Source of the DNA: an uncultured virus (IMG/VR IMGVR_UViG_2772190671_000001)
Taxonomy: Duplodnaviria > Heunggongvirae > Uroviricota > Caudoviricetes
Direction: 5' to 3' (one strand)
DNA length: 64,000 nucleotides
Virus record (IMG/VR): IMGVR_UViG_2772190671_000001
Made by a program: the position numbers and the translations under genes. Every line of letters begins with the position of its first letter. Position 1 is the first letter of the stretch. Shown in pieces: positions 3,935-64,000 of this stretch. The notes beneath the pieces were generated by a model, which did not search any database, had not been told where the DNA came from, and was given only the letters and a program-made list of their open reading frames with translations.

Positions 3935-4228
3935 ATGACCGACACCCTCGCCCGCATCGAGCAACACCTAGCCGCGGCAGCAGCCGCCATCCAGGGGGAA
4001 CTAGCCGCGATCACCGACCCCGCCGCGCGCCAGGACGTCGCCCGCGAAACACTCGAAACCCTCCTCCCCAAACTCGGCCACGACGTCAAGATGGCACGGG
4101 CGGCAGCCGTCGCCGAACTCAAGCAAGGCCGCACCCTCGCCCAAGTTGGACAGCTGCTAGGCGGCCTCTCCATCGCCCGCGTCGACCAAATCCTCAAGGC
4201 TGGCGGCATCACCGCGAAGACGAAGTAA
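3935..4228 (+). CDS. Small protein with C-terminal HTH
   Basis: GRTLAQVGQLLGGLSIARVDQILK; TTGAAA-N17-TACCCT promoter suggests a leaderless start. Confidence 0.7.
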   Translation: MTDTLARIEQHLAAAAAAIQGELAAITDPAARQDVARETLETLLPKLGHDVKMARAAAVAELKQGRTLAQVGQLLGGLSIARVDQILKAGGITAKTK

Positions 4229-4292
4229 TGCAGAACGCCCGCCTCGACGGGGGATGCGAGGCGGGCTGCTGCCAGTGTGGCACGAGGCCGGT

Positions 4293-4526
4293 TCAGCGGC
4301 GGCGCTTCCCCAGCGATGGAGCGCCCCCGGGCACCGTGCGCACGCCTTGCTTGGAGACGCCCCTCGCCTTCGCCTGCGCCGGACCCGCTGCGGCCGTGGC
4401 CACCGCCTTGGCGTCTGCGTCCAGTGTTGCGGCTTGCGCCTCCAGCTCTTCGTCACTGGGCGAGCCGCAGCTGGGCTGCAGGAATACTTGCTCCGGGATC
4501 GACGGCCTCACGGGCTTGTCCGTCAC
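4293..4526 (-). CDS. Hypothetical protein
   Basis: GTG start overlapping the recombinase stop. Confidence 0.5.
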   Translation of the reverse strand: MTDKPVRPSIPEQVFLQPSCGSPSDEELEAQAATLDADAKAVATAAAGPAQAKARGVSKQGVRTVPGGAPSLGKRRR

Positions 4527-5551
4527 GGCGTCTCCTTCTCCAGCCGCTCGCCGAGTCTGGCGGCGAGGGCGTAGGCGGGGTGGTTGTCGAGCTGTCGTCG
4601 TCGCCGGTTGTACCGCTGTGTGGTGCGCGGGTCGGAGTGCGACACGGCGTCCTGGACGTCCTGCAGGGGGACGCCGTTGGCGAGGTTGTCGGTGATGAAC
4701 TGGTGTCGCAGCGTGTGGGGCTTGATGGTGGCGGCTTGCGGGATGCCTGCGCGGCGGGCGAGGACGCGGAGGTGCTTCCACACTTCGGGCTGGGTCCAGC
4801 GGCGGCCGGTCTCGGTGGTGAACAGGGGGCCGTCGGTGCGGTCGCCGAGGTAGGCGAGGAGAGCGTCGAGGGCGAGCGGCGGTACGGGCGCGGGTCGCTT
4901 CTTGCCGCCTTTCTGGGTGAGGGGCAGGGTGCGGTGTCCTCGGTCGTAGCCGAGCTGGTCGGCGTTGAGGGAGAGGAGTTCGTCGACGCGGGCGCCGGTG
5001 AGGTAGAGGAGCATGACGAGGGCGTAGGAGCGGGGCGCCCAGTCGCGTGCGGTCTCGATGAGCCGCATCGTCTCCTGCTCGGTCATCCCCTCCGTCGGCG
5101 AGTAGTCGGGGTCGACGTAGGGCCGGTTGACGGCGGCGAACGGGTCGCTGTCGACGGCTTGGAGGCGGGCCGCGTAGGTGTAGAAGGAACCGGCGGCGGC
5201 CAGGGCTTGGGCCTGAGTGGTCTCGGCGGGCGGCTTGCCGTTGCGGGTGGGGGTCTTGGCGAGGTGTTTGGCGTAGGCGTCGGCGAGCGGCAGCTTCGCT
5301 TGGAGCGGGTGGATGCCGGTGGAGCGGGCGTACTCCTCCCACGCCTTGAAGGTGCGGACGTAGGCGCGCCTCGTGTGGCGGGACTTCTGGCGGGCGATCC
5401 ATCCTCCGGCGATGGTGGGGAGCGGGTCGCGGTCGCCGTAGATGGCGGTGAGGTGGTCGGCGAGTTGGCGGGCTTCGTCGGGCCAGTCGTCGCGGGGGTC
5501 GTGCCGGTCGGTCGACAGCTCCGCCGACGGGCGCGGGACGACGGCGGTCAC
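4523..5551 (-). CDS. XerC/XerD-like tyrosine recombinase
   Basis: LYLTGARVDEL (R), QKGGK (K), PHTLRH (HxxR), VSHSDPRTTQRY (H, Y); SAM-like N-domain, no arm-binding domain. Confidence 0.92.
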   Translation of the reverse strand: MTAVVPRPSAELSTDRHDPRDDWPDEARQLADHLTAIYGDRDPLPTIAGGWIARQKSRHTRRAYVRTFKAWEEYARSTGIHPLQAKLPLADAYAKHLAKTPTRNGKPPAETTQAQALAAAGSFYTYAARLQAVDSDPFAAVNRPYVDPDYSPTEGMTEQETMRLIETARDWAPRSYALVMLLYLTGARVDELLSLNADQLGYDRGHRTLPLTQKGGKKRPAPVPPLALDALLAYLGDRTDGPLFTTETGRRWTQPEVWKHLRVLARRAGIPQAATIKPHTLRHQFITDNLANGVPLQDVQDAVSHSDPRTTQRYNRRRRQLDNHPAYALAARLGERLEKETP

Positions 5552-5937
5552 GGCCGCCACTCCTCGCGGTAGCCGGGCCGGTCCGCGTAGGGCAGCGAGA
5601 GCACTTGAAGCGTCTCATGCAGGACGTCACGCCTGTGGATGGCGGTCGCCCGGTCCATCTCCGGCATGAACGTGTCCTTACCCTCGGCCTTCAGCCTCTC
5701 GCATAGGGAGGCGAGTTCCTCCATTCGCTCAACCGCTTTGATATACGTCGCGATCACCCGCCGCTTGGCGTCGATCTCGCGCAGCACCCGCGCCGCTACG
5801 ACTGGTGGAAGCCCGGCCACCGTGCTCTTGTCCCAGCCGTCGTAGTCGGGAGGGGGCTCGGCCTTCAGATAGCCGCGCCGCGCCTCCCCTTCATCCGTGT
5901 CCAGCTGTTCGCCCAACCACCGCGCCAGCTCACCCAT
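5548..5937 (-). CDS. DUF6221-like protein
   Basis: ARVLREIDAKRRVI...LSLPYADRPGYREEWRP signature; RBS GGAGG. Confidence 0.75.
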   Translation of the reverse strand: MGELARWLGEQLDTDEGEARRGYLKAEPPPDYDGWDKSTVAGLPPVVAARVLREIDAKRRVIATYIKAVERMEELASLCERLKAEGKDTFMPEMDRATAIHRRDVLHETLQVLSLPYADRPGYREEWRP

Positions 5938-5951
5938 CCCGTTCCTCCCAA

Positions 5952-5979
5952 GTATTGGATAACTGTCATTATCAACCAC
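5952..5979. other. dif/lox-like tyrosine recombinase site (11-6-11)
   Basis: GTATTGGATAA-CTGTCA-TTATCAACCAC: ATAA-N6-TTAT core, arms 8/11 inverted-identical, AT-rich, upstream of the recombinase operon. Confidence 0.7.
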
Positions 5980-6121
5980 AGAGTTGGGTGATCGCCAGGG
6001 TCGCCGGCGCGGCGTCGAGGTGCTTCTCGGCTGCCTCTTCCATGGCGGCCAGGACGGCGAGCGTCGCAGCGTCGTAGGCGGCAGGGGTGGCGTCCGGCTG
6101 ACGCGGGATGAGGTCGGTCAC
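5972..6121 (-). pseudogene. Short ORF, possible truncated N-terminus of another recombinase
   Basis: VTDLIPRQPDATPAAYDAATLAVLAAMEEAAEKHLDA resembles (from memory) N-termini of Streptomyces phage recombinases; ORF stops inside the dif-like site. Confidence 0.35.
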
Positions 6122-6233
6122 GGGTTCTCCGATCGGGTACGGTACGGGCGATGCCCCGGCTGCTTTCCTCAGCCGGGGCATCGCTCATCCGGGTCAACGC
6201 TGCACGGCAGTCGTCCCTTGCCGGGGCGATGGC

Positions 6234-6473
6234 TCAGCAAGACCGTCGCGTCTTGAGTTCTTCCTCGGTGAGCGCGCTGTGGCTGAGGCAGAACGCGTCG
6301 CCGTTCTTTACGTCGCGGAACCGATAGATCATCGGGTTGCGCCGCGCTTCGCGCTCGGTGAAGAGGGCGTCCCTGTCTGAGGTCGGGGTCGCGTCTATCA
6401 CCTGACAGGTGAGGTCGAAGCGGCCGAGGGTGACGATTTCGCCCTCTCGGAGCCACTCGTTCGGGGTGCTCAT
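6234..6473 (-). CDS. Hypothetical protein
   Basis: ATG overlapping upstream stop. Confidence 0.6.
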   Translation of the reverse strand: MSTPNEWLREGEIVTLGRFDLTCQVIDATPTSDRDALFTEREARRNPMIYRFRDVKNGDAFCLSHSALTEEELKTRRSC

Positions 6474-6652
6474 CGCACGCACCACCAGGTGTAGCGCGGG
6501 CCGTTGGGTCGCTGGTTGAGCATCTCGACGCTGGCCTCTGCGGTCTTGAACTCCGTATGGGTTCCGTGCCAGCGGCCGGTCTTGACGTTGAAGACCTCGA
6601 AGGTCCCCTGAATGTTCATGCTGTTGATCGGCCTTACGTGATTCGCGGCCAT
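6470..6652 (-). CDS. Hypothetical protein
   Basis: RBS GGAGGG; MAANHVRPINSMNIQGTFEVFNV. Confidence 0.6.
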   Translation of the reverse strand: MAANHVRPINSMNIQGTFEVFNVKTGRWHGTHTEFKTAEASVEMLNQRPNGPRYTWWCVR

Positions 6653-6772
6653 TTCACCCTCCCCGGTCAATACCTGTTTCTGTTTAACAAGAATGACGCA
6701 TACGGATCCCCTCGTCAAGCCATCACGCCAGATGGATGCTAGATTCTGTTAAACACTTACCGAGGGGGAGAG

Positions 6773-7000
6773 ATGGGTCGACCCGCCACAGGCAAAACCA
6801 AGGTCATGGGCTTCCGTCCACCTAAGCCGCTGCGCGACGAGTTCGAGTGGCTCGCCGGGATCGAAGACCGAACACCATCCGACGCGCTCATCGAAGCGAT
6901 GCACGACTGGGTGAAGAAGAAGCGGCGCGAGCGAGCGACGGAAGGCGATCCACTGGAGTCACTCCCCCCTGACGGAGAGTCGGACAATCACCCCAAATAA
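6773..7000 (+). CDS. Ribbon-helix-helix DNA-binding protein
   Basis: MGRPATGKTKVMGFRPPKPLRDEFEWLAGIEDRTPSDALIEAMHDWV; strong RBS. Confidence 0.75.
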   Translation: MGRPATGKTKVMGFRPPKPLRDEFEWLAGIEDRTPSDALIEAMHDWVKKKRRERATEGDPLESLPPDGESDNHPK

Positions 7001-7060
7001 TGCCCGCGATATGGCATGTTATCGAGAGCTGAGCACGCCAACTCCGCACCCGGACACAGC

Positions 7061-7096
7061 AGAACGCCCCCACCGCCGAAGCGGTGGGGGCGTCTG
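7061..7096. terminator. Hairpin terminator at end of late/lysis operon
   Basis: ACGCCCCCACCGC-CGAA-GCGGTGGGGGCGT. Confidence 0.75.
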
Positions 7097-7205
7097 TCAC
7101 GCGGGCTCATCGTCGGGCGGCCAGTCGGGTTCGCGGAACGGCCAGCGCGACAGGTACATCGGCGTGCCGGGGTCGTCGTCGGGGATGTGGGGCATGGCGC
7201 CTCCC

Positions 7206-8616: not shown

Positions 8617-9390
8617 TCAGGACTCCTTCGCTACGGCGGCCCGCAGCTGCGCGACTTCGGTGCGCAGGGCCTTGAGTTCGGTGAGGATGGCGTCGGTGTT
8701 CTCGCGAGCCTTGCGCGCGTGCGCGTAGCCGGAGCCGAGTGCCGCATTGACGGCGATCTTCCCGTCGGCGAGGCCCTTGTCGTCGGGCCACTCCTGCGGC
8801 ACCCACGCGCCGAGAATGACGGCGTCGGACAGTTTCATCTCGTTGGTCTCCTCGGGCGTGGCGGTCTTCGGCGGCGTGGCGGCCGCGGGTCGGGGCGCTC
8901 CCGCCTTGACCCAGGCGTAGATGGCGTCGCCGGGGCAGCTGGTGGCGTAGCCGTCTCGGTGGCCGCCCAGCCACGTTCCGGCCGGGCCTTCCTTGCGGCA
9001 GTAGTCGATCGCATCCCGGGCGCCGGACAGCTGGGCGTCGGTGGGCTTGGTCAGGCCGGACGAGCCGACGAGCAACAGCACGGCGTAGTCCTGATCGTTG
9101 AGCGTGGTGTTGCCGTTCGCCGAGTTGCGGCGCTTCAGGCCGCGGCCTTCGTACACGTAGCCGTGGGTGCAGACGACGAAGCTGTAGCCGATGTCGGACC
9201 AGCCGTTGCCGTCCATGTGCTGGGCCTGGATCTGCCGCACGTAGTCGTCGCACTTGTCGTGCGTCCGGTCGGTGTAGGCGGTGCCGAGGTAGTGGAGCTT
9301 TACGCCGCGGCGCGGCCGGCTGTACGGGGTGGCGCCGTTGGGTGTGCGGTACGCGCGGGCACCCCACTGGGATCTGGTGACGAGCTGCAA
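8617..9390 (-). CDS. Endolysin, N-acetylmuramoyl-L-alanine amidase (PGRP/Amidase_2)
   Basis: VTRSQWGAR, HMDGNGWSDIGYSFVV...VYEGRG, GHRDGYATSCPG. Confidence 0.93.
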   Translation of the reverse strand: MQLVTRSQWGARAYRTPNGATPYSRPRRGVKLHYLGTAYTDRTHDKCDDYVRQIQAQHMDGNGWSDIGYSFVVCTHGYVYEGRGLKRRNSANGNTTLNDQDYAVLLLVGSSGLTKPTDAQLSGARDAIDYCRKEGPAGTWLGGHRDGYATSCPGDAIYAWVKAGAPRPAAATPPKTATPEETNEMKLSDAVILGAWVPQEWPDDKGLADGKIAVNAALGSGYAHARKARENTDAILTELKALRTEVAQLRAAVAKES

Positions 9391-14008: not shown

Positions 14009-17000
14009 TCAACCAGCGTTGATGACGGCGGCGAGTTCCTGATTGTTGCGGTGGACACGCACGTCGATGAAGTCCGCCAAGGCCCGGTCCTGGGTGTGGA
14101 TCTCTACCACGACCGGCTCGTCCGTGCCGCGGGCCGCCAGATCGTTGAACTGCGCCCCGGTCAGCACGGGTTCGGGCCGGCCGGTGCCGTTGTAAGCCAA
14201 GTTGAATCCGGGTTGGAGGAAGCCACCCGCGTCATACTTGCCGGGCTGGAAGCCGTACCAGGACTGGAACAGCCGGTCGTTGTAGCCGCGGGCTCCCTTG
14301 CCGACGACGACGCCGTCCCCGCCGCGGGACTCGACGTTGACCTTGCCGAGGGTGCCCGCTGTGTGGCCGACGCCGTCGGCGGTGATGCCGACCCGGAAGG
14401 GGCTATTGCCTTTCAGTACCCATCCGGGCGGAGCAGTCTTGCCGTGGAAGGCGTGTGTGCTCCACCTGCGGTGCGGCTTCTGCCCGCGGATGACGGACTC
14501 GATCGCGGACATGAAACCGGAGCAGTCCCAGCTGGGGTTTCCGTTTCCTGCCCACTGGTAGGGCAGCCCGTCCTGGGTTTTCGCCCACTTCAGCGCAGCC
14601 TGGATCCGTGGGCCACCAATGCCTCCGGCGCCCTTCTTGTCGGCCTCCTTGCTGTAGCCGAACAGGGTGTCGAGGATCTTGTCGGGGACCCTCCGCAGCA
14701 GGGCACCAAAGCCGGTGTCCATGCCGGGGAAAGACTTCAGCAGCGGGTCCACGACGTTCTTGACGCCCGCGCGGGCGGACTCTTCCAGGGTGTCGGCGAG
14801 CCAGCTCGCGCCCTTCTTGATCGTGTTCCAGGCGGCCGTGCCGGCGCCGACCGTGGCCGACGCGGCCTTGCCGATCCAGCCGAAGATCCCGCCGTCCGCG
14901 AACGCTTGGTGGATACCGCCGCTGGCGTAGCGCAGAGACCGGTCGGTGCCGGTGTGCGGGTTGCCGCCCAGTATGGGGGCGAGGGCCCGGCGTACTCCGT
15001 TCGCGCCCGACGAGCGGGCGATCTGGTTGAAGTGCGACACGAAGCCCGACCCGACCGCGCGGGTGAACTCTGGCCGCATGATGGCCTCGCCGCCGGACAG
15101 GTCGAGCGCCCCGCCCGTCGGGGAGATGAAGCGGTGCACGTCGCGGCCGGGCGTGTAGCCGGGCAGCACGCCGCCGCCGGCGAATCCCTTCGGGTGGATG
15201 GGGTCGAGCGTTGGTGCCCCGAAAGCCTTCGCGATGGCGTTCCAGATGCTCCGCAAGCCCGAGTTGTACACCGTGTCCACGATGAACGAGACGGGCTTTT
15301 TGGCGATACCGGAGATCTTGTCCCACGCCGTCTTGATTGCCTTGCGTGCCGTCTCGAAGCTGGCGCCCACCTGGCCCACTGCAGCCCGCAGCGTGTCAAA
15401 GATCGGTTTGACGCCGTTCTTCCACACGCTCGATACGTGCTCCCTGATGCCGTTCCACACCGGCTTCACGGCGTTGTCGCGCAGCCACCGGAATACCGCT
15501 CCGACGTCCCGGATTCCGCCCTCCAAGAGATCGAAGTGCGGCTTGATGACGTTGTTCCACGCTGCTTTCACCGCCGCCTGGATCGCCCGCCACACCGGCA
15601 GCACGACTTTGTCACGCAGCCAGGCGAACGCCGGACCCAAGCCGGTGGTCACCCACGAGATCAGGCCTGCGATCGACTGGACCATGCCACCAATCCAGCC
15701 GATCGCCACGGACAGTGCGGACGCGAGGCCGCCGATCAGGAATTCGGCAAGACCGATCAACGGAGGCAGCAGCCACGACAGGACGTTGACGGCCAACTCC
15801 AGCACCAGCCCGATGATCTCCGCCAGCGGAGGCAGGATCGGCAGCAGCGCAACGACCAGATCGACGCCCGCCTGGACGAGCAGCAGCAACGGAGGCAACA
15901 GCTGCATGAGCACACCGGCAGCCATTTCCAGGATCATCCCGACGAGTTCGCCGAGCACAGGGAACAGCGGCGCGAGCGCCTCCACCAGGATCAGTAGTGC
16001 ACCAGTGAGCGGCGGCAACACCTGGGCGAGGGTGTCGGCGAGCATCCCGACGAACGCCCCCAGGACGGGGGCGATTCCGGCGAGGATGGGGGCGAGTTGC
16101 TGGGCGATCGCCCCTGCCATTTCGGCGAGGGGGCCCACGATGCCCAAAAGTGCCGTCGAGATCGCCACGAATGCGTCCGCGATCGTGGGCAGGATGGGCA
16201 GCAGCGCCCCCAGGACTGTGGTGACGAGCTGCACGCCGATCGGGATGAGCGGAGCCAGGCCCTGCACCAGGACGATGGCCGCGTCGGCGAAGCCGAGCAG
16301 TGCGGGCAGCATGGTGAGCAGGGCTTCGCCGATTGCCGTGAATGCCTCGGAGATGACCGGGAGGAGGGGCTCCAGGGCGGCGAATACGACCTCGACGAGT
16401 TGCATGCCGACTGCGATGAGCGGCTCAAGTACGGCCATGAGCTGCGTCAGCGCGGCGGCGAACACGTCGGCGACTAGCTGCGCCACCATCGTCAGCAAGC
16501 CGATAAGGGGGGTGAGCAGGGGCTCCAAGTCGCGGAATACCTGCGCGGTGATGTCGGCGACAGCCACCATCACGGGAGTCAGGGCCTGCACGACCTGCAT
16601 CAGCGGCCCGACCAGCAGATTGATCAGCTGAGTGGTCACAGCCAGCACGGGCGCCAGGGCAGGCGCGAGCGCGGTGATGACCGCGCTGATCAGTTCCGCA
16701 ATGGGCTGCAGCAACGGCATCACAGACTGGACGATCTGCACGATCGTCGTGCCCACCATGACGAGCGCTGGGGCGAGGGCCTGAACGATCGGCGTCAGGG
16801 CCGCGCCGAGTGTCGTAGCCAGCTGCTGCAGGACCGGCCCGAGCGCGGTGGCGAGGGCGGCAATCGGCTGAGCGATCGCCGCGAGGAGCGGCACGACGGC
16901 CTGCACGACCGCCCCGATGACAGGGACGATCGCACCAACGATCTGCGCCACGGAAGCGAACAGGCTGCGCATCTGCGCCTGCATCTGCGGCGCGGCAAGA

Positions 17001-18613
17001 ATCTTCTCCAGCTCGCCGAAGACGGCGCCGAGCGTGCCGACGATCTGACCGCCCGCATCGCTCGCCGCTTTGAAGATCTCGCTGACGACCCCGAAGACGT
17101 TGCCCAGCAGCGTGCCGAACTGGGAGAGGATCCCGAACGCCGTCTCGGTGGCCTGCTGCAGGCCGCCCGACTCGAAGCTCGCGGCGATGCCGTCAGTGAA
17201 GCTGGTGATGGCGCCGGCCATCTGGGTGAGCAGTGCGTTGAACGCGGGCTGCGCGGCGACCGCCAACTGCCCCCAGGCGGTGAGCAGCTGCCCCGGGGTG
17301 TCCGCGAACACCTTCAGATTGGCCGTCGCCCCGGCGAGGATCTTGTCGAGCATCCCCGTCCTCGCCATCTCGGTGATGGCGCCGGCGGCGTTCTTCGCCA
17401 TGTCGTTCCACACGCCGGCCGTGGCGGTCAGCTGCCGCTGCAGGATCGGGATCGTGGTGTTGCCGAGCGTCGTGACGGTGGAGTCCAGGCCCTTGAACAG
17501 TTCGTTCTGCACCGACAGGCGCATGGCGTCCCACGCCGGCGCAAGGCCCTGCACGGCCCGCACAAAGCTCTGCGCGTTCGGTGCGAGTTTGGCCATGGCC
17601 TCGCCGAACTTTGACGTCTGCGCGGCGGCTGCGGCCTGCGCGTCCGCCACTGCGGCAGCGGCGTCGGCGACGGCGCGTTGTGCGTCCTCGATCTGCCGGG
17701 CGCCGTCGGCGCGCGCCTCATCCACGCCGCGCTGGGCGTCCGCGAGTGCGCGCTCTTTGTCGGCGACGGTCTCGTTGGCGTCAGCGATGCGTTCGCGGAC
17801 GTCGAGCACCTGCTCGCTGCCCTCGATGCCGGCCTTGTTGGCCTTCTTCGTGTCTTCGGCGAGCCGCTTCGTCTCTGTGCGCTGCTCGGTCAAGTTCAGC
17901 CGGGCCCGCTCGTAGCTGATGCGGAGCCGTTCCAGCTCGTCAGGGGTGACGCCCGGCTTCTTCTGTGCCGCCTTGAGCTCTTCCTCGGCCTCCTTGAGGC
18001 GCAGGACGGCCTCGCGCTCGTCGAGGTGGGATTCGGAAAGCTGCTGGTTCATGTCCTGCAGGGCGCGCGCCGCCTCTCGGCGGGCGTCGTTCAGTTCTCC
18101 CTGTACGGCGCGGGCATCGCGCTGCGCGTCGGCGAGGTCCCGCTCGGAGTCGGCGACCTGCCGCTGTGCGTCCTTGACGCGCTCGGCCGCATCCACGCGG
18201 GCCTGCGCGAGGGAGCGCTGCGCGTTGGCCAGCCCCCGCTGCGCTGATTCGACCGCCTTCGTCGCCGAGGCGGCGGCACCGGCGTCGGCGGACGAGTCCG
18301 CGAACGCGGCCTTGAACGCCTCCCCCACTCCGCTGAGCCCGAGCTTCAGCGCGCCGGCCGCGGCGCCTGCGGTGGCCAGCGCGGGCGCGAGGACGGCAGC
18401 CCCGGCCGCAGCCGAGGAGAGGTTCGCACCGATCGCGACACCGGCCAGCAGGCCGACACCCTTCATTCCGGCGCCGAACGCCTTCGAGAAGGCGCCTGCC
18501 CCGGACTTGCCCGCAGACGATGCGCGCGAGGTGACAGATCGGGACCAGTCCCCTTCGAACTCGGGCCGGATGGAGACGTATCCGCGTCCGACGAGGACAC
18601 CGCCAGCTGCCAC
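14009..18613 (-). CDS. Tape measure protein with C-terminal NlpC/P60-like domain
   Basis: About 1530 aa, Ala/Leu-rich repeats, coiled coil; PYQWAGNGNPSWDCSGFMS. Confidence 0.93.
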   Translation of the reverse strand: MAAGGVLVGRGYVSIRPEFEGDWSRSVTSRASSAGKSGAGAFSKAFGAGMKGVGLLAGVAIGANLSSAAAGAAVLAPALATAGAAAGALKLGLSGVGEAFKAAFADSSADAGAAASATKAVESAQRGLANAQRSLAQARVDAAERVKDAQRQVADSERDLADAQRDARAVQGELNDARREAARALQDMNQQLSESHLDEREAVLRLKEAEEELKAAQKKPGVTPDELERLRISYERARLNLTEQRTETKRLAEDTKKANKAGIEGSEQVLDVRERIADANETVADKERALADAQRGVDEARADGARQIEDAQRAVADAAAAVADAQAAAAAQTSKFGEAMAKLAPNAQSFVRAVQGLAPAWDAMRLSVQNELFKGLDSTVTTLGNTTIPILQRQLTATAGVWNDMAKNAAGAITEMARTGMLDKILAGATANLKVFADTPGQLLTAWGQLAVAAQPAFNALLTQMAGAITSFTDGIAASFESGGLQQATETAFGILSQFGTLLGNVFGVVSEIFKAASDAGGQIVGTLGAVFGELEKILAAPQMQAQMRSLFASVAQIVGAIVPVIGAVVQAVVPLLAAIAQPIAALATALGPVLQQLATTLGAALTPIVQALAPALVMVGTTIVQIVQSVMPLLQPIAELISAVITALAPALAPVLAVTTQLINLLVGPLMQVVQALTPVMVAVADITAQVFRDLEPLLTPLIGLLTMVAQLVADVFAAALTQLMAVLEPLIAVGMQLVEVVFAALEPLLPVISEAFTAIGEALLTMLPALLGFADAAIVLVQGLAPLIPIGVQLVTTVLGALLPILPTIADAFVAISTALLGIVGPLAEMAGAIAQQLAPILAGIAPVLGAFVGMLADTLAQVLPPLTGALLILVEALAPLFPVLGELVGMILEMAAGVLMQLLPPLLLLVQAGVDLVVALLPILPPLAEIIGLVLELAVNVLSWLLPPLIGLAEFLIGGLASALSVAIGWIGGMVQSIAGLISWVTTGLGPAFAWLRDKVVLPVWRAIQAAVKAAWNNVIKPHFDLLEGGIRDVGAVFRWLRDNAVKPVWNGIREHVSSVWKNGVKPIFDTLRAAVGQVGASFETARKAIKTAWDKISGIAKKPVSFIVDTVYNSGLRSIWNAIAKAFGAPTLDPIHPKGFAGGGVLPGYTPGRDVHRFISPTGGALDLSGGEAIMRPEFTRAVGSGFVSHFNQIARSSGANGVRRALAPILGGNPHTGTDRSLRYASGGIHQAFADGGIFGWIGKAASATVGAGTAAWNTIKKGASWLADTLEESARAGVKNVVDPLLKSFPGMDTGFGALLRRVPDKILDTLFGYSKEADKKGAGGIGGPRIQAALKWAKTQDGLPYQWAGNGNPSWDCSGFMSAIESVIRGQKPHRRWSTHAFHGKTAPPGWVLKGNSPFRVGITADGVGHTAGTLGKVNVESRGGDGVVVGKGARGYNDRLFQSWYGFQPGKYDAGGFLQPGFNLAYNGTGRPEPVLTGAQFNDLAARGTDEPVVVEIHTQDRALADFIDVRVHRNNQELAAVINAG

Positions 18614-18626
18614 CGCGCACCCCCTG

Positions 18627-19070
18627 TTACCGGTTCGCGGCGGGCCTTCCGAAGACGGCCGCCAACTGCTTTGCCCCGGAGCCGTGCTTGCCACCGAAGC
18701 GGATGATGTTGGACTTCTTCTGTTCGACGCCCGGGCGCGGAATGGGGTCCGGCGGCTTCAGGCGGCCGGTCTTCTTCGGATCGCCTCCGAGCTTGACCGT
18801 GGCGAACGTGTTCTCCCGGATGGCGTCCACCGCGCTGGCCAGCAGTTGCCGCTCCAGCGTCCACGCGTCCTCTTCGGGGGTGGATCCGCGCACCGCCCGG
18901 GCGGTCGCCGAGTCTGGCGGCAGATACCGCAGGAAGACGCGCAGCTCACGCCACGACATCTCGCCGCGGTACAGCTCCAGCAGGGACCGGCCGGGCCAGT
19001 AGTGCGGGATGTCCCACTCGACAGCCTCCCCGTACTCCGCTAGGAAGCGGCGGAGGCCTCGGATTCCCCC
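18627..19070 (-). CDS. Tail assembly chaperone, frameshift (T) portion
   Basis: -1 frame opens at GGGGGAA and continues GIRGLRRFLAEYGEAVEWD. Confidence 0.8.
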   Translation of the reverse strand, partial: GGIRGLRRFLAEYGEAVEWDIPHYWPGRSLLELYRGEMSWRELRVFLRYLPPDSATARAVRGSTPEEDAWTLERQLLASAVDAIRENTFATVKLGGDPKKTGRLKPPDPIPRPGVEQKKSNIIRFGGKHGSGAKQLAAVFGRPAANR

Positions 19071-26710: not shown

Positions 26711-28282
26711 TCAGAAACCGACTACACGTCGCTTCCGTTTCCTGGTCAGTCCCGCCGCGACCGCGTCCATCGCCGCCTCATGGGCGAGGACGCTGCACAC
26801 CGCGAGGTCGATCTTCTGGTGGACGGATGCCTTACGCAGCACGTACCGGCCCGCCGGGCGGGCTGCTTTCCGGGCGTTCGCCACATGCTGGGCTGCGAGA
26901 TCGCAGCCGTCGTGCCGCCACGTCGAATCCTTCTTCGTGACGTCCGTGACGAGCCGCTGGCACGCCTCATGCATCTGCTTGATCCGGTTCGTGTACCAGT
27001 CGACAACCCGCTTGTCTCCGTACCGGCTCGCCCAGGTGTCGACCTCGGAGTCCCAGTACGGCGGGTCGCAGTACATGCGCACCACGTCGAAGCGGTCCAT
27101 CAGCTCATCAACCGCGGCGTCGACCTCCAGGCGCGGCGCCTGGCCGCCCCACTCCGCCGGATTCCACACCGTCGGCAGCCCATCCGGCCCATACACCGGG
27201 GTGAACTGGAACCCGTCCAGGGTCTCCGCCCGGATGCCCGTCCAGTCGTCCACGTCGGAGCCGTCGAAGCCGAGCACAATCCGTGTCCCGTCCGGGACTT
27301 CCTCCAGCCCCAGCCGGGCCATCCAGCGGTCCCGGTCGATGAACGCGGCCGTGCCGGCCACGATCCGGTTCATGTAGAACCGCTCCGCCTGCGCCGGATC
27401 CTTCTCCGCGATCTCCACCAGCTCGCCGTCGATGCGGTCCAGATCAACCCACCCGCCGGCGAGGACGGAGGAATCGCCGTAGGCGTGCCGCAGCGCCTTG
27501 TGCCGCTCCCGCTTGTTCGCCAGCGACGCCGGCGCCGGGACCCGGTGGTCGCGGTACACGTCCTTCACCGCGGCCTCGGCGGTGCGCTGCGCCACGCTCT
27601 GCTCGGATGGATCCCACGCGTTCGTCGTCTCCACCGCGCGGCCACCGGTCCCGGACAGGTTCCGGCGCTGGGTCTCGGCGAGCTTCCAACCGCCGTTCGC
27701 CTCCAGCCAGGAATGCGTCTCGTCCTGCACCGCGAACGTGATCCGCTGGCCGAGACGGGCCCGGCCCGAGCTGGTGACCGGCTCGATACGGCCGCCGCCC
27801 GGCACATTGATGCGGGTCTCACCCGTATCCGGGATGAGGTCCGCGAGCGGCCCCTCGTCGATCATCGGGACCAGGGCGCGGTACACGTTGTCCGTCTGAT
27901 CCTCGGAGGTGGCTGCGATCTGGATCCATGGTGTCTCCCACGCACGACCCACCGGCTCCCCAGAGGCATCCCAGCCGGCGAACCGCACCGGGCCAGCCGC
28001 CTCCGCGCACACCATCGCACACGTCAGCGGACCCTTGCCCCACTTCTGCGGACGCACCAGCTGCGAGCGACGGAAGTGCCAGGCAGACCGCCATGTCCCC
28101 TCCGTTGCGTCCTCGCGCAGCCGGTAATGCCACGCCAGGAACCGCCACATCTCATCCGTCAGCAGGTACGGCTCGCCGATGTCATCCCCGTCAGGGACCA
28201 CACAATGCCCCTCGATCCACTCGCCGACCAGCCAGCCCAGCGTCGGGAACTCGCCCGGATGGTCAGGACCCCGCCACGGCAT
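26711..28282 (-). CDS. terL: Terminase large subunit
   Basis: Walker A RPQKWGKG, Walker B AVQDETH, nuclease LGFDGSDVDD and KIDLAV. Confidence 0.95.
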   Translation of the reverse strand: MPWRGPDHPGEFPTLGWLVGEWIEGHCVVPDGDDIGEPYLLTDEMWRFLAWHYRLREDATEGTWRSAWHFRRSQLVRPQKWGKGPLTCAMVCAEAAGPVRFAGWDASGEPVGRAWETPWIQIAATSEDQTDNVYRALVPMIDEGPLADLIPDTGETRINVPGGGRIEPVTSSGRARLGQRITFAVQDETHSWLEANGGWKLAETQRRNLSGTGGRAVETTNAWDPSEQSVAQRTAEAAVKDVYRDHRVPAPASLANKRERHKALRHAYGDSSVLAGGWVDLDRIDGELVEIAEKDPAQAERFYMNRIVAGTAAFIDRDRWMARLGLEEVPDGTRIVLGFDGSDVDDWTGIRAETLDGFQFTPVYGPDGLPTVWNPAEWGGQAPRLEVDAAVDELMDRFDVVRMYCDPPYWDSEVDTWASRYGDKRVVDWYTNRIKQMHEACQRLVTDVTKKDSTWRHDGCDLAAQHVANARKAARPAGRYVLRKASVHQKIDLAVCSVLAHEAAMDAVAAGLTRKRKRRVVGF

Positions 28283-28739
28283 CCGAGTCGACCACCTTCA
28301 GCCGCTGACGGGCCGACTTCCGCGCCTGCACCGTCCGTTCCTGACGCTGCTCGCCCACCTCATCCGCCGCGACCTCCCAGCGCAGCCTCAGCATTGCCTG
28401 CGGCGACAACCCCAGCCGGTCCTCCAGCAGCCGGGCCTCGGCGCCGGCCTTCAGATCCCCGGTCTCCGCCTGCACCTCGAACCGCACGTACCGCGCGACC
28501 GTCCGCGTCCAGCGCATTCGCTCCCATGCCACCGCCTGCGGCGTCTCCCACAGGTCCGCCCACAGACCCGCCTCCCGCTCCTGCAGGATCACCGACAGGC
28601 CCTCATCGTCGGATGGAAGCGGAGGAAGCGGCCACTCTGGGGCGGGTCCGCGGCGGCCTTCGGCCGGCAGTTGCGTCATCGCGACTGTGGCATTGCGGCG
28701 CCGCCGCTCACCGGCGGCCTTCGGAGGAGGTCCAGGCAT
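28263..28739 (-). CDS. terS: Terminase small subunit
   Basis: MPGPPPK...WADLWETPQAVAW...EDRLGLSPQAMLRLRW. Confidence 0.9.
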   Translation of the reverse strand: MPGPPPKAAGERRRRNATVAMTQLPAEGRRGPAPEWPLPPLPSDDEGLSVILQEREAGLWADLWETPQAVAWERMRWTRTVARYVRFEVQAETGDLKAGAEARLLEDRLGLSPQAMLRLRWEVAADEVGEQRQERTVQARKSARQRLKVVDSDAVAGS

Positions 28740-28799
28740 GTCGATCACCCTTCGAGTGCCATCGCGGCACGTCAGCGCCGGGCCATCGCGGCCCGGTGC

Positions 28800-32413: not shown

Positions 32414-32423
32414 CCTGGCCTCC

Positions 32424-32810: not shown

Positions 32811-32820
32811 GGCGCCTCCG

Positions 32821-34680: not shown

Positions 34681-34774
34681 GGTCACCTCCCGGACGTTCT
34701 TGGCTGTCCCGCCGCCTGCGACGGGGGCGTTGCGGGCGGCGGGACGTCGGGGCGTGGGACCGGCCCGCCCCGAG

Positions 34775-36508: not shown

Positions 36509-36636
36509 GTCAGGCCTGACTGTCAGGCCCTCACGGAGGGTGGAGTCACTGACTCTTCTATAAGCCCCCCAACAGGCATGACTCCTGACTGTCAGACGGT
36601 TTCTGACAGTCAGGTGACGCTGTGTGACCGTCAGGC
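36509..36636. repeat. clt-like repeat locus (TGAC-N-GTCA motifs)
   Basis: CCTGACTGTCAG at 36515 and 36584; perfect IR 36584-36596 / 36602-36614; GAGTCACTGACTC 36543-36555; TGACCGTCAGG at traB stop. Confidence 0.65.
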
Positions 36637-38706
36637 GGGAATCAGAGGCGACTGGAGAATCGTGTACTCACCGTAACCATCACGTCGGAGGACGCCCTCC
36701 GTGACCAGCCTCTTCAGCTCGCCCTGGAGCCACGGCTTGCCCCGCCCCGCGGACACGGCCGCCGGGCCCAGATCGGCGGGCTGGAACGTCAACTGGCGGG
36801 CCTGCAGCCACTGGTCGATCTGCTCGTGGATGACCTGCCGCGCCTCTGCTGTGCCGAGCCGATCGCGGCGCTCGAACTGCATGCCGGCGTCGGCCGGAAC
36901 CTCGGGCAGGGACCCGTCGAGATCGATCCCGGAGTAGTCCGCGTCAGGCTCCGGATCGTTGGGGATGAGGCCCATGACCTCGCTGTAGGCGTCCTCGATC
37001 TCCACAGTGATGGCTTCTTCCTGTGCGGACGGCAGGGTGGTCAAGTCGGCTCCGGCTTCTTCCAGTACGTGCGCCGCCGTAGCCAGCTGACCGGTGGGGG
37101 CGGGGTTGAGGCGGTTCGTTCCGCGGTGGGCTCGCTGGGCGTAGGCGGCGCCGAGGGCGGTCGCGGTCGCCTCGTCGAGCGGGTCGCGGTGCTCGGCCCC
37201 GGCGGCGACGAGCGCGGCCAGGTAGGCGCGGTCGGTGAGACCGGAGCGCCACTCCATCGCCCAGCGGCTCTGGTCGATGCCCATGCCGGTGGCGAAGGCG
37301 TAGCCGGGCCGGTCGGATCCCCAGTCGGGTACGGCGCCGGCCTCGATGACCCGGTCGGGCAGCCCGAACCCGGCGTCTCCTGCCTCGTCGACGCCGAAAC
37401 AGGCCGAGGCCTGCAGGTTGGCGCGGACGTCGGTGGACACGTTGGTCCAGGTCGCTCGCTGCAGGGAGACGACGAGCCAGATCCCCACGGAGCGGGCGGC
37501 GCGGGCGATCCGGTCGAGCTCGCTGAAGTCCGCCAGGTCGGCTGCTTCCTCGAGCCACAGCACCATCGCGTTGAGGCTGGACTTCGGCGTCCACTGGTCG
37601 AGGCCCTCGTCGGCGAGGACGTCGCCGCGGACCTTGATGGCGCCGGGCAGCGCCTTAAGGAGGTGCTTGACCTCGCGGCCGTCGGTGAGGAACCAGTCGA
37701 CGCCGTCGGCGATGTGCCCCATGGACTGGCGGCCCTTGGAGCAGTCGGCGAGGAAGATGGTCATCTTGCGGCGGGTGGCCAGGTGGGCGATGAGGCCGCG
37801 GGCGAATTCGGACTTGCCGGCGCCGGTGACTCCCATGACGAGGAGGTGCTGGAGGATGTCGGCGTCGAACGGGTTGATGATGAAGGTCTCGCCGTCGGCG
37901 TACAGGCCGAGCGGAATCGGCTCGTTGGGCAGCTGGCCGAGGCGGACGGGCGGGATGAACTGGACGCCGTCCTTGAGGAGGTCGGCGACGCGAATGTTGA
38001 GGGTTCCCCGGCCGGCGTTTTCCTGGTTGCGGGCGATGGTGGCGCCGGAGGTCGGCACTTGCATGGCGGCGGCCAGCTTGGGCAGGGCGGCCTGGACGTC
38101 GTCCATGGTCTGGCCGGCGGCCAGCTCGATGGGCGCCTGGACCATGCCCTTGCCGTTGCCCTTGGCCGACTTGACCGTGAGCTTTTCCAGGCCGATCGCC
38201 TCGGCGATCTTCCCGAGGCTGTTCTTCTCCTCGACTGGTTCGGTCTCGTCGTGGGCGTTGCGCATCAGCTGCCGGATGTTCCAGGAGGCGGCGAACACGC
38301 CGCCCCCGAGGAGCCACAGGTCGATCATCGGGGAGCCGAACGGTCCGGCGGCGGTGGCGCAGGTCAGCCAGCCCATCCCGGCGGCGACGGACGCGGTGGC
38401 CTGAGTGCGCCGGTAGCGGCGGAACTTGTTGCTGCCGCCCGCCGCATGCCAGGTCACGGCGCTGAGGACGACTCCCGCGACGCCGAGGCCGGCGGACGCC
38501 AGCCCGGCGGACAGGGCACTGTCGCCCCACATCTGGTTGGTGGCGAACCCGGCCATGGGGGGCAGCGTGTAGGCGCCGATCCACGGCGACGTGTACGGCA
38601 TTGCCTTGCCCGCGAGGTGGGAGATGAAGCCTCCCCGCCCGACGGGCACAAGGTCGGTGGAGGTGTTGACCGGCTGGCGGGGGCTGCGGGTGGCGGTGCG
38701 CGCCAT
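36631..38706 (-). CDS. traB: TraB-type FtsK/SpoIIIE conjugative DNA translocase
   Basis: N-terminal TM helices, Walker A GVTGAGKS, Walker B VLWLEEAA, ARSVGIWLVVSLQRAT, C-terminal wHTH (KPWLQGELKRLVTEGVL). Confidence 0.88.
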   Translation of the reverse strand: MARTATRSPRQPVNTSTDLVPVGRGGFISHLAGKAMPYTSPWIGAYTLPPMAGFATNQMWGDSALSAGLASAGLGVAGVVLSAVTWHAAGGSNKFRRYRRTQATASVAAGMGWLTCATAAGPFGSPMIDLWLLGGGVFAASWNIRQLMRNAHDETEPVEEKNSLGKIAEAIGLEKLTVKSAKGNGKGMVQAPIELAAGQTMDDVQAALPKLAAAMQVPTSGATIARNQENAGRGTLNIRVADLLKDGVQFIPPVRLGQLPNEPIPLGLYADGETFIINPFDADILQHLLVMGVTGAGKSEFARGLIAHLATRRKMTIFLADCSKGRQSMGHIADGVDWFLTDGREVKHLLKALPGAIKVRGDVLADEGLDQWTPKSSLNAMVLWLEEAADLADFSELDRIARAARSVGIWLVVSLQRATWTNVSTDVRANLQASACFGVDEAGDAGFGLPDRVIEAGAVPDWGSDRPGYAFATGMGIDQSRWAMEWRSGLTDRAYLAALVAAGAEHRDPLDEATATALGAAYAQRAHRGTNRLNPAPTGQLATAAHVLEEAGADLTTLPSAQEEAITVEIEDAYSEVMGLIPNDPEPDADYSGIDLDGSLPEVPADAGMQFERRDRLGTAEARQVIHEQIDQWLQARQLTFQPADLGPAAVSAGRGKPWLQGELKRLVTEGVLRRDGYGEYTILQSPLIPA

Positions 38707-39389
38707 CACTCGTCTCCGATCGTGAACTGCGGGCGGGCCTGCTTGGCGCCCCGCTGCTTGTTACGGGCGTCCTGCTCGGGCTTGATGAAGTGCCGGTCGA
38801 AGGCGTGCGCCATCTTCAGCGCGCCGACACCGAGAGCTTTGGCCGCTTCGGCGGACACCTTCAGGTGGGCGGAGACCAGGCGGGCTTTGACGCGGCTGCT
38901 GGCGCCGAAGGTGTACCAGTGGCCCTTGTAGGTGGACAGGACGCCGTTGATCTCTTCGGCGCGCATGCTGATGATGAAGTGGAGTTCGCGGCCGAGCCGG
39001 TTGATGGCCTTGGCGAGGTCGATGATGTCCTTCTCGTTGCGGAACTCGATCCGTTCGATCGCGGAGATCATGCCGTCGCCGCGGTGGTGGCTGCCGGATC
39101 CGCTGGCGGGGGTGTCGTCGTTGTTGCGACCTCCGCCGTTGTTTCCGCCTCCGCGGCCGCCCCCGTTGACGTGGACGTTGATCGGGGGCGTGAACGCGCT
39201 GCCCAGGCCTCCGGCGAATCCGCCTGCGGCGGCACCAGCTGCGCCGGCAACACGGGCGGCGCGGGACGAGGTGGCCGGCGGGTCCTGCCGCGGGCGGGGC
39301 GGGGCCTGGCGCGGCGGGGCGACCGGCCGGGGCGGGGCCTGCGTCATGCCGGAGTCGTTGTCGTCCGCCCAGTTGTACACGCTGCTCAT
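38706..39389 (-). CDS. TraA-like plasmid transfer protein
   Basis: Coupled directly upstream of traB; Gly-rich N-part, helical C-part. Confidence 0.6.
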   Translation of the reverse strand: MSSVYNWADDNDSGMTQAPPRPVAPPRQAPPRPRQDPPATSSRAARVAGAAGAAAGGFAGGLGSAFTPPINVHVNGGGRGGGNNGGGRNNDDTPASGSGSHHRGDGMISAIERIEFRNEKDIIDLAKAINRLGRELHFIISMRAEEINGVLSTYKGHWYTFGASSRVKARLVSAHLKVSAEAAKALGVGALKMAHAFDRHFIKPEQDARNKQRGAKQARPQFTIGDE

Positions 39390-62031: not shown

Positions 62032-62550
62032 ATGGAGCGAGATTGGGAACGGCTCGGCAGGGCATACGCGAAGGCCCGGACCGCGGCAGGCCTCACCCAG
62101 GAACAGGTCGCGGAGCGGCTGCACGTCAGCCGCACCCCCATCCAGGCCATCGAGCGCGGACGGCAGCCCAACGGCAAGGCCTTCACGAAGGTCACCCAGA
62201 CGATGCGGTCCTACGCGCGCCTGGTCGGCTGGACCGAGGCGTCCCCCGATCTGATCCTCGACGGGCAGGAACCAGAACCGGCCACGCGACCCGTTTCACC
62301 GGCCGCCGAGTCCAGGTCCGGTCTTCCGCCGGCGATCGACCGCGAACTGCGTTCCGGGCAAACCCTCGACCACACCGTGGTGCACCTCAGCGGCGAAGGC
62401 GATGACGACGATGTCAGGCTCGTAGTCGTCCTCAAGGGCGCGGAGGGCATGAGCGAGGAGGAGATCGACCGGCGCTACGAGCAGTGGCGCAGGGCGCGGC
62501 GCCAGGTGCAGGCACTGGCCGGCGAACCAGACACCCCACAGGAGCCGTAA
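62032..62550 (+). CDS. Immunity repressor (XRE HTH)
   Basis: ARTAAGLTQEQVAERLHVSRTPIQAIERG; divergent from Cro-like gene, upstream of integrase. Confidence 0.85.
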   Translation: MERDWERLGRAYAKARTAAGLTQEQVAERLHVSRTPIQAIERGRQPNGKAFTKVTQTMRSYARLVGWTEASPDLILDGQEPEPATRPVSPAAESRSGLPPAIDRELRSGQTLDHTVVHLSGEGDDDDVRLVVVLKGAEGMSEEEIDRRYEQWRRARRQVQALAGEPDTPQEP

Positions 62551-62650: not shown

Positions 62651-63061
62651 ATGTGGGTCATGCACGTTGAGCGTGTTCAGGGTGACTACAGAGAACCCGA
62701 GATCATCGATCTCGAAGACGGCACAGGCTGCCTGTTCAGGCTGCACGAGATAGACATCAGCGAGGACGGCGTGAAGCCCCTCGCGAAGCTCCTCACCGAG
62801 CAGGCGCAGCGCTGGGCGCCCAGGCCGCCCGGCTCCCCCCTCGGCCCGGTTATTCCCGTGCGCTGGGAGCGCATCCCCAACCCGCCGGACCCGCTCGCCA
62901 TAGGGGTCGACGACGGCCCCAACGGCATCACCTACACGCTGGACGCCAAGATGCTCAGCCAGCATGCCGCGGACTATCTCAGCCGACTCGACACGGAACG
63001 ATCTCCGTACTGGCAGCGTGTACCCAAGGGCTACCACGACGGCAAGAACGACGCCGAGTAG
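62651..63061 (+). CDS. Hypothetical protein between repressor and integrase
   Basis: Clean ORF; no HEXXH motif. Confidence 0.7.
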   Translation: MWVMHVERVQGDYREPEIIDLEDGTGCLFRLHEIDISEDGVKPLAKLLTEQAQRWAPRPPGSPLGPVIPVRWERIPNPPDPLAIGVDDGPNGITYTLDAKMLSQHAADYLSRLDTERSPYWQRVPKGYHDGKNDAE

Positions 63062-63080
63062 CGAAGCGCAAGGGGGCACC

Positions 63081-64000
63081 GTGGCCTACGCCGAGAAGGT
63101 CTACAAGGTCCGCAACGGCAAGCAGACCAAGCAGTACACGTGGAAGGCCAAGTACAAGAAGCCCGACGGCAGGTACGGGTCCGAGTCCGGCTTCCCGACG
63201 AAGGCTCTGGCCGAGCAGTGGGGCGGGCAGCAGGAAGCGGCGATCCGCGCCGGAACCTGGATCGACCCGGACAAGCTCAACACGCCGTTCGGTGAGTGGG
63301 TCGAGATCTGGAAGACGGCCAACAAGAAGCGCCCCCGCACCCAGAGCGGTCGCGCTTACCTGCTGGCCAAGCTCCTGCTGCCCGAGTGGGAGCACACGCC
63401 GCTAATGCAGGTGAACAACGTCTTCACGGTGAAGTCGTGGGCAACCCGCATGGCCAAGCCGCACGGCAAGCACGACCCGGACACCGTCGCCCAGGCCCGC
63501 AGCCTGCTCTCGTCGATTCTCTCCGGCGCTGAGGACGCCGGCTACATCCCGGCGAACAAGCTCTACGGCAGGCGCATCCTCGTAGGCGGCGATCACCACG
63601 AGGAGGAAGAGGAGGTCTGGGCACAGCCCGACGAGGTGTACCGCATGAACCAGCGCATGAGCGGCGTGCACGGGCTGATGATGACTGCTGACTGCTACCT
63701 GGGATTCCGGTGGGGGGAGTTGGCCGGCCTGCACCGGGACAACTGCCTCCTCAAGCGCGAGGACAAGATCGACGGGCGGCCGTTCGTGCGGCACGTGATC
63801 CGCGTCGATCCGAAGGTGGGCTCTCTGCACGAGGATCCGGTGGAGCTCGACGAGGAGAGCCTGGCTGCATGGGAGGCCGCCGAGGACGCGCGGCTACGGA
63901 AGTGCATCGAGAAGGGCTGGAAGGCGAACCGCAGGAAGGCGCCGGCGAACAAGCTGCACGTCTATCTGGGGCCGCCGAAGAACAAGTACTCCGCCCGCGA
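63081..64000 (+). CDS. int: Tyrosine integrase (3' end beyond window; not in ORF track)
   Basis: GTG start MAYAEKVYKVRNGK...SGFPTK (arm-binding-like), YLGFRWGELAGL (catalytic R), GPPKN; frame open to window end. Confidence 0.9.
   Translation, partial: MAYAEKVYKVRNGKQTKQYTWKAKYKKPDGRYGSESGFPTKALAEQWGGQQEAAIRAGTWIDPDKLNTPFGEWVEIWKTANKKRPRTQSGRAYLLAKLLLPEWEHTPLMQVNNVFTVKSWATRMAKPHGKHDPDTVAQARSLLSSILSGAEDAGYIPANKLYGRRILVGGDHHEEEEEVWAQPDEVYRMNQRMSGVHGLMMTADCYLGFRWGELAGLHRDNCLLKREDKIDGRPFVRHVIRVDPKVGSLHEDPVELDEESLAAWEAAEDARLRKCIEKGWKANRRKAPANKLHVYLGPPKNKYSAR

Follow-up and report, generated by a model that had tools for sequence, protein, structure and literature searches.

What would a temperate phage of Streptomyces do with a second tyrosine recombinase when another enzyme has probably inserted it into the chromosome, and what is the AT-rich palindrome beside that second gene for? 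The question is raised by a stretch of 64,000 nucleotides from an uncultured virus (IMG/VR record IMGVR_UViG_2772190671_000001; "the window" hereafter means this whole stretch, which was analysed at full length). The window encodes a tyrosine recombinase of 345 amino acids, P0001 (4523..5560, minus strand; PF00589 2.5e-25, PF02899 1.3e-06), and upstream of the gene carries a 28-bp imperfect palindrome of 11-6-11 format, GTATTGGATAA-CTGTCA-TTATCAACCAC (5952-5979), a candidate core site and operator. An earlier note on this DNA had proposed that gene and palindrome form a self-contained multimer-resolution system, which might be coupled to an FtsK-family protein of the phage. We find that the two make up a conserved module, and we give an even chance to the reading that P0001 has the palindrome as its own core site and that the two form a portable module for multimer resolution, self-regulated and of the Cre/loxP or single-Xer type. 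Multimer resolution survives from the earlier proposal as the best fit to the context; the FtsK-family coupling is unsupported.

All coordinates given in the earlier note held when the sequence and its open reading frames (ORFs) were read again, including the 14 bp it had placed between the palindrome and the operon. In particular, the ATG of the first gene lies at 5937, and a leader with the ribosome-binding site GGGAGG, read from the sequence, fills 5938..5951 (minus strand). This first gene encodes a DUF6221 protein (5548..5937, minus strand; PF19730 7.6e-16, phrog_6326 4.3e-19), and its stop lies over the start of the recombinase gene, the two ORFs overlapping by 13 nt. On the strand of the gene the palindrome reads GTGGTTGATAA-TGACAG-TTATCCAATAC, and its arms agree at 8 of 11 positions as an inverted repeat. 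With up to 3 mismatches allowed, the 28-mer occurs once in the window and in none of 100 shuffles, and the 16-base core GATAA-N6-TTATC has one copy in the 9,179,735-bp genome (0 in a control read backward); together these counts exclude chance. The site forms no stable hairpin (z = -0.32), and Rfam returned nothing above threshold; a terminator or RNA reading of the site was rejected.

A scan of species-representative genomes yielded 36 loci, nearly all from Streptomyces, with recombinases 64-97% identical. The strict core is found in 31 of the 36, in one copy each and always upstream of the gene, and two further loci carry a variant of it: L033 differs by one base (GAATAA; G-to-A), and L025 has ATGGTTGATAA-TGACAG-TTACTCACCAT. 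With these two included, the site is present in 33 of the 33 loci that keep the 5' end of the gene together with upstream DNA; the remaining three (L032, L035 and L037) were left out because the 5' end of the gene is missing or the locus has decayed. The earlier note had staked its proposal on conservation of the site beside homologues, and every usable locus bears this out. The distance between site and recombinase start is about 30 bp to 2.7 kb in these loci, and 3 to 2700 bp when the other relatives are counted in, with differing cargo genes in between, and the site always heads the operon; in many loci it abuts the start codon of the recombinase gene with nothing between them. Of 46 sites examined, 45 have their GATAAT half on the coding strand and ahead of the operon. 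Among 32 unique 28-mers, GATAAT is near-invariant (L033 is the exception), as is GTTATCC (L025 being the variant), and the central T..C.G is kept. Perfect 11/11 palindromes make up 4 of these 32 unique sites, and both arms share one half-site pattern.

When all ORFs around the site were clustered, no family but the recombinase was shared across 15 representative loci. The flanks fetched for 45 module loci contain a DUF6221-like ORF in 8 cases, and the records of pSLE1, pSAM1 and NZ_CP108470.1 annotate DUF6221 next to the recombinase; it is a recurrent but optional neighbour, and the low count rules it out as an obligatory partner. Single-linkage clustering had also suggested a second, tandem recombinase in one clade of the family (clade 3, below), which we reject, as the 344-residue ORF found between site and gene is unlike either recombinase. 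Two single loci may be recorded here. L029 (3943-3970) is the sole locus in which the asymmetric centre of the site is inverted with respect to the recombinase gene, the site lying between that gene and one for an Xre-type helix-turn-helix (HTH) protein. L037 (3735-3755) holds a decayed relic of the module, of which ACAG-TTATCCAATAA is left, with the break inside the 6-bp centre and the recombinase cut after about 53 residues.

Four clades of the recombinase can be distinguished, and the arm sequences change with the clade while remaining palindromic. Clade 1, with recombinases of at least 64% identity, has arms of the form RTRKTKGATAA; clade 2 has GGGAAGGATAA/TTATCCTTCCC; clade 3, at 43-49% identity, has GCACAGGATAA/TTATCCTGTGC; and clade 4, which comprises pSLE1 and the phage-plasmid NZ_CP108470.1, has GTACCAGATAA/TTATTGGGTAC or related arms. 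That both arms change together is the behaviour of a site bound by a dimer. We also observed a subclade, represented by L203 and L210 (plasmids NZ_CP109265.1 and NZ_CP108988.1), with an HTH gene ahead of the recombinase gene and another AT-rich palindrome (GTCCCGTAATAATAGGGAC-like) upstream in place of the canonical site.

P0001 has the catalytic residues and the fold of a tyrosine recombinase. Its PF00589 match covers model positions 3-169 of 172, and the residue set R-K-H-R-H/W-Y of tyrosine recombinases is present as R-K-H-R-H-Y: across 27 homologues, down to about 50% identity, R191, K217, H282, H308 and Y317 are invariant and R285 is at least 90% conserved. The retention of these catalytic residues argues that the family has been kept as an enzyme and not just as a DNA binder. 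An AlphaFold (AF2) model built on the 27 homologues (predicted local distance difference test score, pLDDT, 86.8) shows the two-domain clamp fold with core-binding and catalytic domains. Its best fold matches are XerA (5hxy, rank 1), IntI4, the Tn1549 Int core, XerD, XerH (5jjv) and Brujita Int, and Foldseek gives a probability of 1.00 to XerA, IntI4, XerD, XerH, the lambda Int core and Cre. A sequence search of the PDB returned archaeal XerA (4a8e, 5.6e-18), E. coli XerD (1a0p, 8.4e-16), XerH and, weakly, Brujita gp33 (8e-4). No arm-binding domain was found: residues 1-20 are of low confidence, the helices of the SAM-like domain begin at residue 22, and Pfam reports PF02899 and PF00589 only. 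The earlier label 'XerC/D-like' is apt for fold and family resemblance but not for membership, since the NCBIfam models for XerD (117.5 bits vs a cut-off of 329.6), XerC (115.7 vs 335.15) and XerA (121 vs 220) align to P0001 from end to end and yet score far below their cut-offs, as does XerS (30.8 vs 267). As judged from its sequence, P0001 is Xer-like in build and is not XerC, XerD or XerA. Public names are only generic ('tyrosine-type recombinase/integrase', 'site-specific recombinase XerD'), and PADLOC found no defence match for the recombinase, the DUF6221 protein or 10 neighbouring ORFs.

A point absent from the earlier note is that the site overlaps a promoter. In a stacked alignment of the loci, a conserved block, CCCTGGCGATCACCCAACTCT on the strand of the gene (5980..6003, minus strand), occupies the -35 position; many loci keep this block upstream of the site, and in L016, L017 and L034 the hexamer CTGACA lies 18 nt ahead of GATAAT. 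The window's own -35 hexamer is weak (3/6), and a consensus promoter scan over 4200-7200 gave no match, so that the promoter reading rests on the relatives. In 7 of the 10 clade 2, clade 3 and viral loci listed, TATCCT of the right arm stands 6-7 nt ahead of the first ATG, a spacing that would be the geometry of leaderless actinobacterial promoters. The site thus likely overlaps the promoter of its operon, and a protein sitting on the palindrome would then occupy that promoter, which fits a likely autoregulation by the recombinase.

Which enzyme integrates the phage is indicated by the borders of the prophage. A 43-bp direct repeat at window positions -575 and 64513 (L196 and L197) marks the ends of a prophage of about 65.1 kb, and the right copy falls in a gene for tRNA-Val (64512-64585 in window numbering, beyond the window end; minus strand), of which it makes up the 3' part. 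Adjoining this gene is an ORF of 492 residues (62964..64000 and on to about 64442, past the window end; plus strand) that matches phrog_1 'integrase' at 5.1e-29 and has no match in a Pfam search. The prophage was probably inserted in tRNA-Val by this phrog_1-type integrase, and the earlier description of P0001 as a second recombinase was right. The gene for P0001 and the intact 28-bp site lie about 5-6.5 kb inside the left prophage end, opposite the integrase. The core site is not split between the prophage ends, which consist of the tRNA-Val repeat; because that repeat adjoins another integrase and the 28-bp site is whole inside the prophage, the Xer-like recombinase is not the integrase of the present insertion.

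Relatives of the module ride on several kinds of mobile element, and it is sporadic in the genus; we find it on prophages, plasmids and a phage-plasmid, a spread unlike that of a vertically inherited module at chromosomal termini. L021 and L063 have a large serine recombinase immediately past the Xer-like gene, where the edge of the element meets host genes, and L029 is an element with Prim-Pol and helicase genes. The contig G145:C4 is a conjugative plasmid of 37,165 bp that assembles as a circle with an exact overlap of 15,002 bp, to which its two copies of the site are due; it encodes a TrwC relaxase, a TraG-type coupling protein and a DnaB-like protein, and its only ORF with a Phage_integrase domain belongs to the P0001 family. 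In PLSDB a homologue occurs in 40 plasmid records, 29 of them from Streptomyces. Fifteen of these plasmids were opened: the canonical site precedes the operon in 11, and, by topology, 11 are circular extrachromosomal carriers, unlike the 4 that are linear and the integrated prophage of the window. NZ_CP108470.1 is a circular phage-plasmid of 36.7 kb with genes for terminase, portal, protease, capsid, tail tube, DnaB and ParA; its P0001-family gene is its only annotated recombinase, with the site 18 bp ahead of the start. Zeta-toxin genes lie within a few kb in 7 clade-3 loci, a neighbourhood that looks like the plasmid stability regions with zeta toxin known from Gram-positive plasmids. By counts of sites, and by the single copy in the window's own genome, there is one site per locus and per replicon, accompanied by its own recombinase.

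The genomic background is one in which a resolvase of this kind could be useful. Streptomyces, with their linear chromosomes, are not known to have XerCD/dif, although we found no paper to cite for this. None of 41 sampled genomes of the host genus contains a protein that reaches the XerD cut-off, and 6 of the 41 have any match to the XerD model at E <= 1e-25. The window's own genome has no pair of XerC/XerD paralogues at a chromosomal dif; the XerD model matches the P0001 gene only, which lies inside the prophage.

Chromosomal Xer systems depend on FtsK, and the phage encodes an FtsK/SpoIIIE-family ATPase (36631..38709, minus strand; PF01580 1.3e-07, phrog_24831 8e-303); the two facts would favour a Xer-dif-like system switched on by the phage's own FtsK-family (TraB-like) translocase, as the earlier note had considered possible. 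We regard such coupling as very unlikely. Homologues of the ATPase (E <= 1e-10) were present in 0 of 10 module-bearing genomes, in a search whose control worked (the query finds itself), and no FtsK-like gene was seen among the 31 ORFs of the TrwC/TraG plasmid by Pfam scan or in the PLSDB annotation, which is incomplete, of the phage-plasmid NZ_CP108470.1. The ATPase and recombinase genes are, moreover, 31 kb apart, and as the TrwC/TraG plasmid illustrates, the module also rides elements with other transfer systems.

We also searched with the core pattern alone, without regard to any recombinase. GATAA-N6-TTATC matched in 60 of 400 other genomes of the genus, and the 35 regions that were fetched comprise 12 with a P0001-family match (one of them weak and partial), 1 orphan and 22 of another class. 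The recombinase-linked class reads GGATAAT-N4-GTTATCC with palindromic outer arms. The second class, (T/C)GATAACC.GGGTTATC(A/G), is often paired at 8.4-12.5 kb (L039-L044, L049-L053, L066-L073), and the DNA fetched for its 22 regions holds no P0001-type recombinase; in the two loci that were gene-scanned (L039 and L044) its palindromes flank HsdM and HsdR type I restriction genes and an SMC-like ATPase, and they are probably operators of a defence island. As a marker of the module the core alone is unspecific and was discarded, 22 of the 35 regions being of this restriction-modification class. The orphan (L077, position 15024; G380:C61) is an exact 18-base core, GGATAATGACAGTTATCC, that is chromosomal and intergenic, lacks palindromic outer arms and has no recombinase within 35 kb. 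Among viral contigs, where 80 loci were fetched of at least 117 matches, 9 are high-GC: 5 have a recombinase of 45-68% identity adjoining the site, 1 has a weak match 2 kb off, and 3 have none (one of these lies at a contig end). A separate observation concerns a recombinase closer to XerD (143 bits) that is present twice, on G034:C83 and on G034:C95. On C83 its gene has a GATAATTGCCCTTATC site at a distance of about 150 bp, a layout suggesting that there are further families with the same site format.

From these findings we infer that the recombinase binds the site, recombines it, serves in resolution and regulates itself, in the following manner. One recombinase monomer would bind each 11-bp arm, with the half-site consensus RTRKTKGATAA in clade 1, and strands would be exchanged across the 6-bp centre T-N-N-C-N-G. 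With a single site on each replicon, a pair of sites comes together only in joined copies (a dimer, a multimer or a cointegrate), which the recombinase would split into monomers, as Cre does at loxP or a single-recombinase Xer at its adjacent dif. Since the site overlaps the operon promoter, binding should also repress the operon. The module would move among the temperate phages, phage-plasmids and plasmids of Streptomycetaceae, where, as no sampled genome shows a canonical XerD, circular replicons must supply a resolvase themselves. For the window's phage, its time of action would be when the DNA exists as a free circle, integration at tRNA-Val being left to the other integrase. Multimer resolution fits best because prophages with another integrase keep the site whole, each element has a single site, the carriers include plasmids and a phage-plasmid with ParA, and no XerD was found in the sampled genomes of the genus.

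Other explanations were weighed against this reading. It is unlikely that the palindrome is only a promoter or operator for some other phage or host regulator and that the target of the recombinase lies elsewhere. An operator would explain why the site overlaps -10-like hexamers (GATAAT, in some loci with the CTGACA -35 hexamer 18 nt upstream, and TATCCT near the ATG in 7 of 10), and it would sit well with the GATAAC...GTTATC palindromes that flank restriction-modification islands without a recombinase, with the orphan core in a chromosome and with the HTH genes near some loci. What speaks for a recombinase target instead is that the recombinase alone is common to the 15 representative loci, that the arms change with the recombinase clade, that the site abuts the recombinase start codon in many loci, and that tyrosine-recombinase core sites are built in this way, with 11-bp arms on either side of a 6-bp centre. 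A chance AT-rich intergenic stretch, which only the small size of the palindrome could recommend, has next to no probability given uniqueness in 9.18 Mb, the empty shuffles and the 33 loci of 33; conservation has already refuted it.

A further candidate is a second system for integration or fusion, in which the palindrome would be a simple attP-like site, recombining with a partner site carried by a chromosome, a plasmid or a resident prophage, and used for alternative integration or for phage-plasmid cointegrates, in the way of the arm-less Brujita-type integrases. In its favour, the nearest phage proteins (about 35% identity) carry integrase annotations, P0001 has a distant likeness in fold and sequence to Brujita gp33, a chromosome carries the orphan exact 18-mer core, the relic L037 is broken inside the 6-bp centre, and the sites of different elements differ mainly at central positions, as heterospecific sites would. 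We nevertheless hold such a role to be rather unlikely, for the site is whole beside the gene in every intact locus, including those on large chromosomal contigs, no split attL/attR pair was found, the own genome has a single copy of the site, and another integrase accounts for integration here and in L021 and L063.

Several observations weigh against a multimer-resolution module. The loci share descent, and the counts overstate their independence; part of the conservation of the site can be explained by its promoter function. The core alone is not diagnostic, being shared by the restriction-island palindromes that have no recombinase, and the inner GATAA motifs, 11 bp apart centre to centre, would also suit an HTH dimer. 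Covariation of arms and enzyme is imperfect, L128 combining a clade-3-like left arm with a clade-2 enzyme. Among the 15 plasmids, 4 are without the canonical site, and of the 4 linear records 2 have it; together with the integrated prophage, these linear carriers mean that dimer resolution cannot explain every occurrence. Lastly, no recombination product was seen, and among 741 locus pairs of 39 sites there is no break in homology exactly at the site. (The only pair with one flank alike, at 97%, and the other not, at 60%, is L010/L026, where the break, placed by eye, falls about 30 nt upstream of the site; cassette exchange at the site accordingly found no support.)

The rest of the window is that of a siphovirus-type Streptomyces prophage of high GC content (66-74%), most of whose genes are on the minus strand. 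The gene order, taken from Pfam matches among 74 ORFs, is: a divergent HTH repressor-like gene (62032..62550) with the early genes next to it, the FtsK/SpoIIIE-family ATPase gene, a small terminase (28263..28748) followed by portal, capsid and tail tube, a tape measure (14009..18694) and an amidase (8617..9390). Genes for hyaluronidase-like, Gp80 fibre-like, collagen-repeat and polysaccharide-deacetylase proteins lie at 30102-35085 (minus strand), upstream of the small terminase gene; this location of fibre- and depolymerase-like genes between early and packaging genes is unusual. Beyond the amidase gene, a GC-rich hairpin with a T-run (7063..7097, minus strand), as read from the sequence, is the probable terminator of the lysis and late operon, so that the module would have its own transcription unit, with a few small ORFs between hairpin and palindrome. 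The Rfam match of this hairpin to 'sar' is weak and lies below threshold. Following the terminator is a second motif, CTCTCGATAACATGCCATATCG (7007..7028, minus strand), which resembles GATAA-N6-ATATC. It recurs in 18 loci (L003-L036), 50 to 1044 bp upstream of the site, and once inverted and downstream (L011), and it may stand outside the recombinase-site module. In G192 (L048) this motif is a perfect palindrome, GATAACATGCCTTATC, with no recombinase nearby.

Taken jointly, the arm classes and carriers raise a broader possibility, which we put forward as doubtful: that such modules are portable, self-regulating dif/Xer substitutes of Streptomycetaceae replicons, in at least four arm classes, and that shared sites fuse phage and plasmid. 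If this were true, single-base differences in the centre would keep co-resident elements from accidental fusion, whereas a site held in common would let one enzyme join phage and plasmid as a cointegrate and later part them again. Prophages could travel by conjugation and plasmids in capsids, and such cointegrate traffic would explain the presence of the module on linear plasmids and in integrated prophages. Our findings offer a concrete job for the puzzling 'second integrase' of actinobacteriophages and a hint at the means by which circular phages and plasmids may manage in Streptomyces. They also provide a natural set of pairs of a small recombinase and a 28-bp site, which comes from high-GC actinomycetes and spans several arm classes and variants of the centre; should the pairs prove active, they could serve as orthogonal Cre/lox-like tools for Streptomyces genome engineering.

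How does the module compare with systems already known? The kind of system is known, but the P0001 family, its site and its spread in Streptomycetaceae appear to be undescribed in the searchable literature; a full-text search, outside which subscription papers such as older work on Streptomyces plasmids fall, found no description of the module or of DUF6221. The nearest phage proteins, at about 35% identity, are the second 'tyrosine integrases' of Arthrobacter and Gordonia phages (clusters FA and FF). Among these, Karkharias likewise has a small enzyme of the P0001 type plus a larger integrase, but there the small-type gene sits in the central lysogeny cassette, and no comparable palindrome was seen beside it. 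Genome announcements describe two integrases in one phage as rare, and whether both work as unknown (PMC13097055, PMC9670964).

The Brujita-type integrase (PDB 5vfz) resembles P0001 as a simple two-domain tyrosine recombinase of an actinophage, with a weak match in sequence (8e-4) and a match in fold. This arm-less enzyme is, however, the integrase of its phage, whereas the P0001 site is whole in prophages that have another integrase. XerC/XerD with dif, cer and psi share with P0001 the superfamily, the domain layout and a site format reminiscent of dif; unlike them, P0001 is encoded by a single gene and not a pair, and no long accessory region is conserved at its site. Closer are archaeal XerA/dif, XerH/difH and XerS/difSL. 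XerA and XerH are the best matches of P0001 in sequence and fold, and in these systems, too, a single recombinase gene lies beside its own site of 11-6-11 type with ATAA/TTAT inner arms; but they act at chromosomal termini, whereas the P0001 module is carried by phages and plasmids, and P0001 scores far under the cut-offs of the XerA and XerS models.

Cre/loxP of phage P1 resolves dimers of a plasmid-prophage at a site of 13-8-13 format. It differs from the module described here in that the P0001 site is 11-6-11 and overlaps the recombinase promoter, that the window's phage is integrated and not a plasmid, and that the PDB sequence search detected no kinship of P0001 with Cre. The two are nevertheless alike in design: each has one tyrosine recombinase without an arm-binding domain and one palindromic site per replicon, with no accessory sequences evident; a relative of the module lies next to ParA on a circular phage-plasmid, and Cre structures superpose on the P0001 model with template modelling (TM) scores of about 0.52-0.58.

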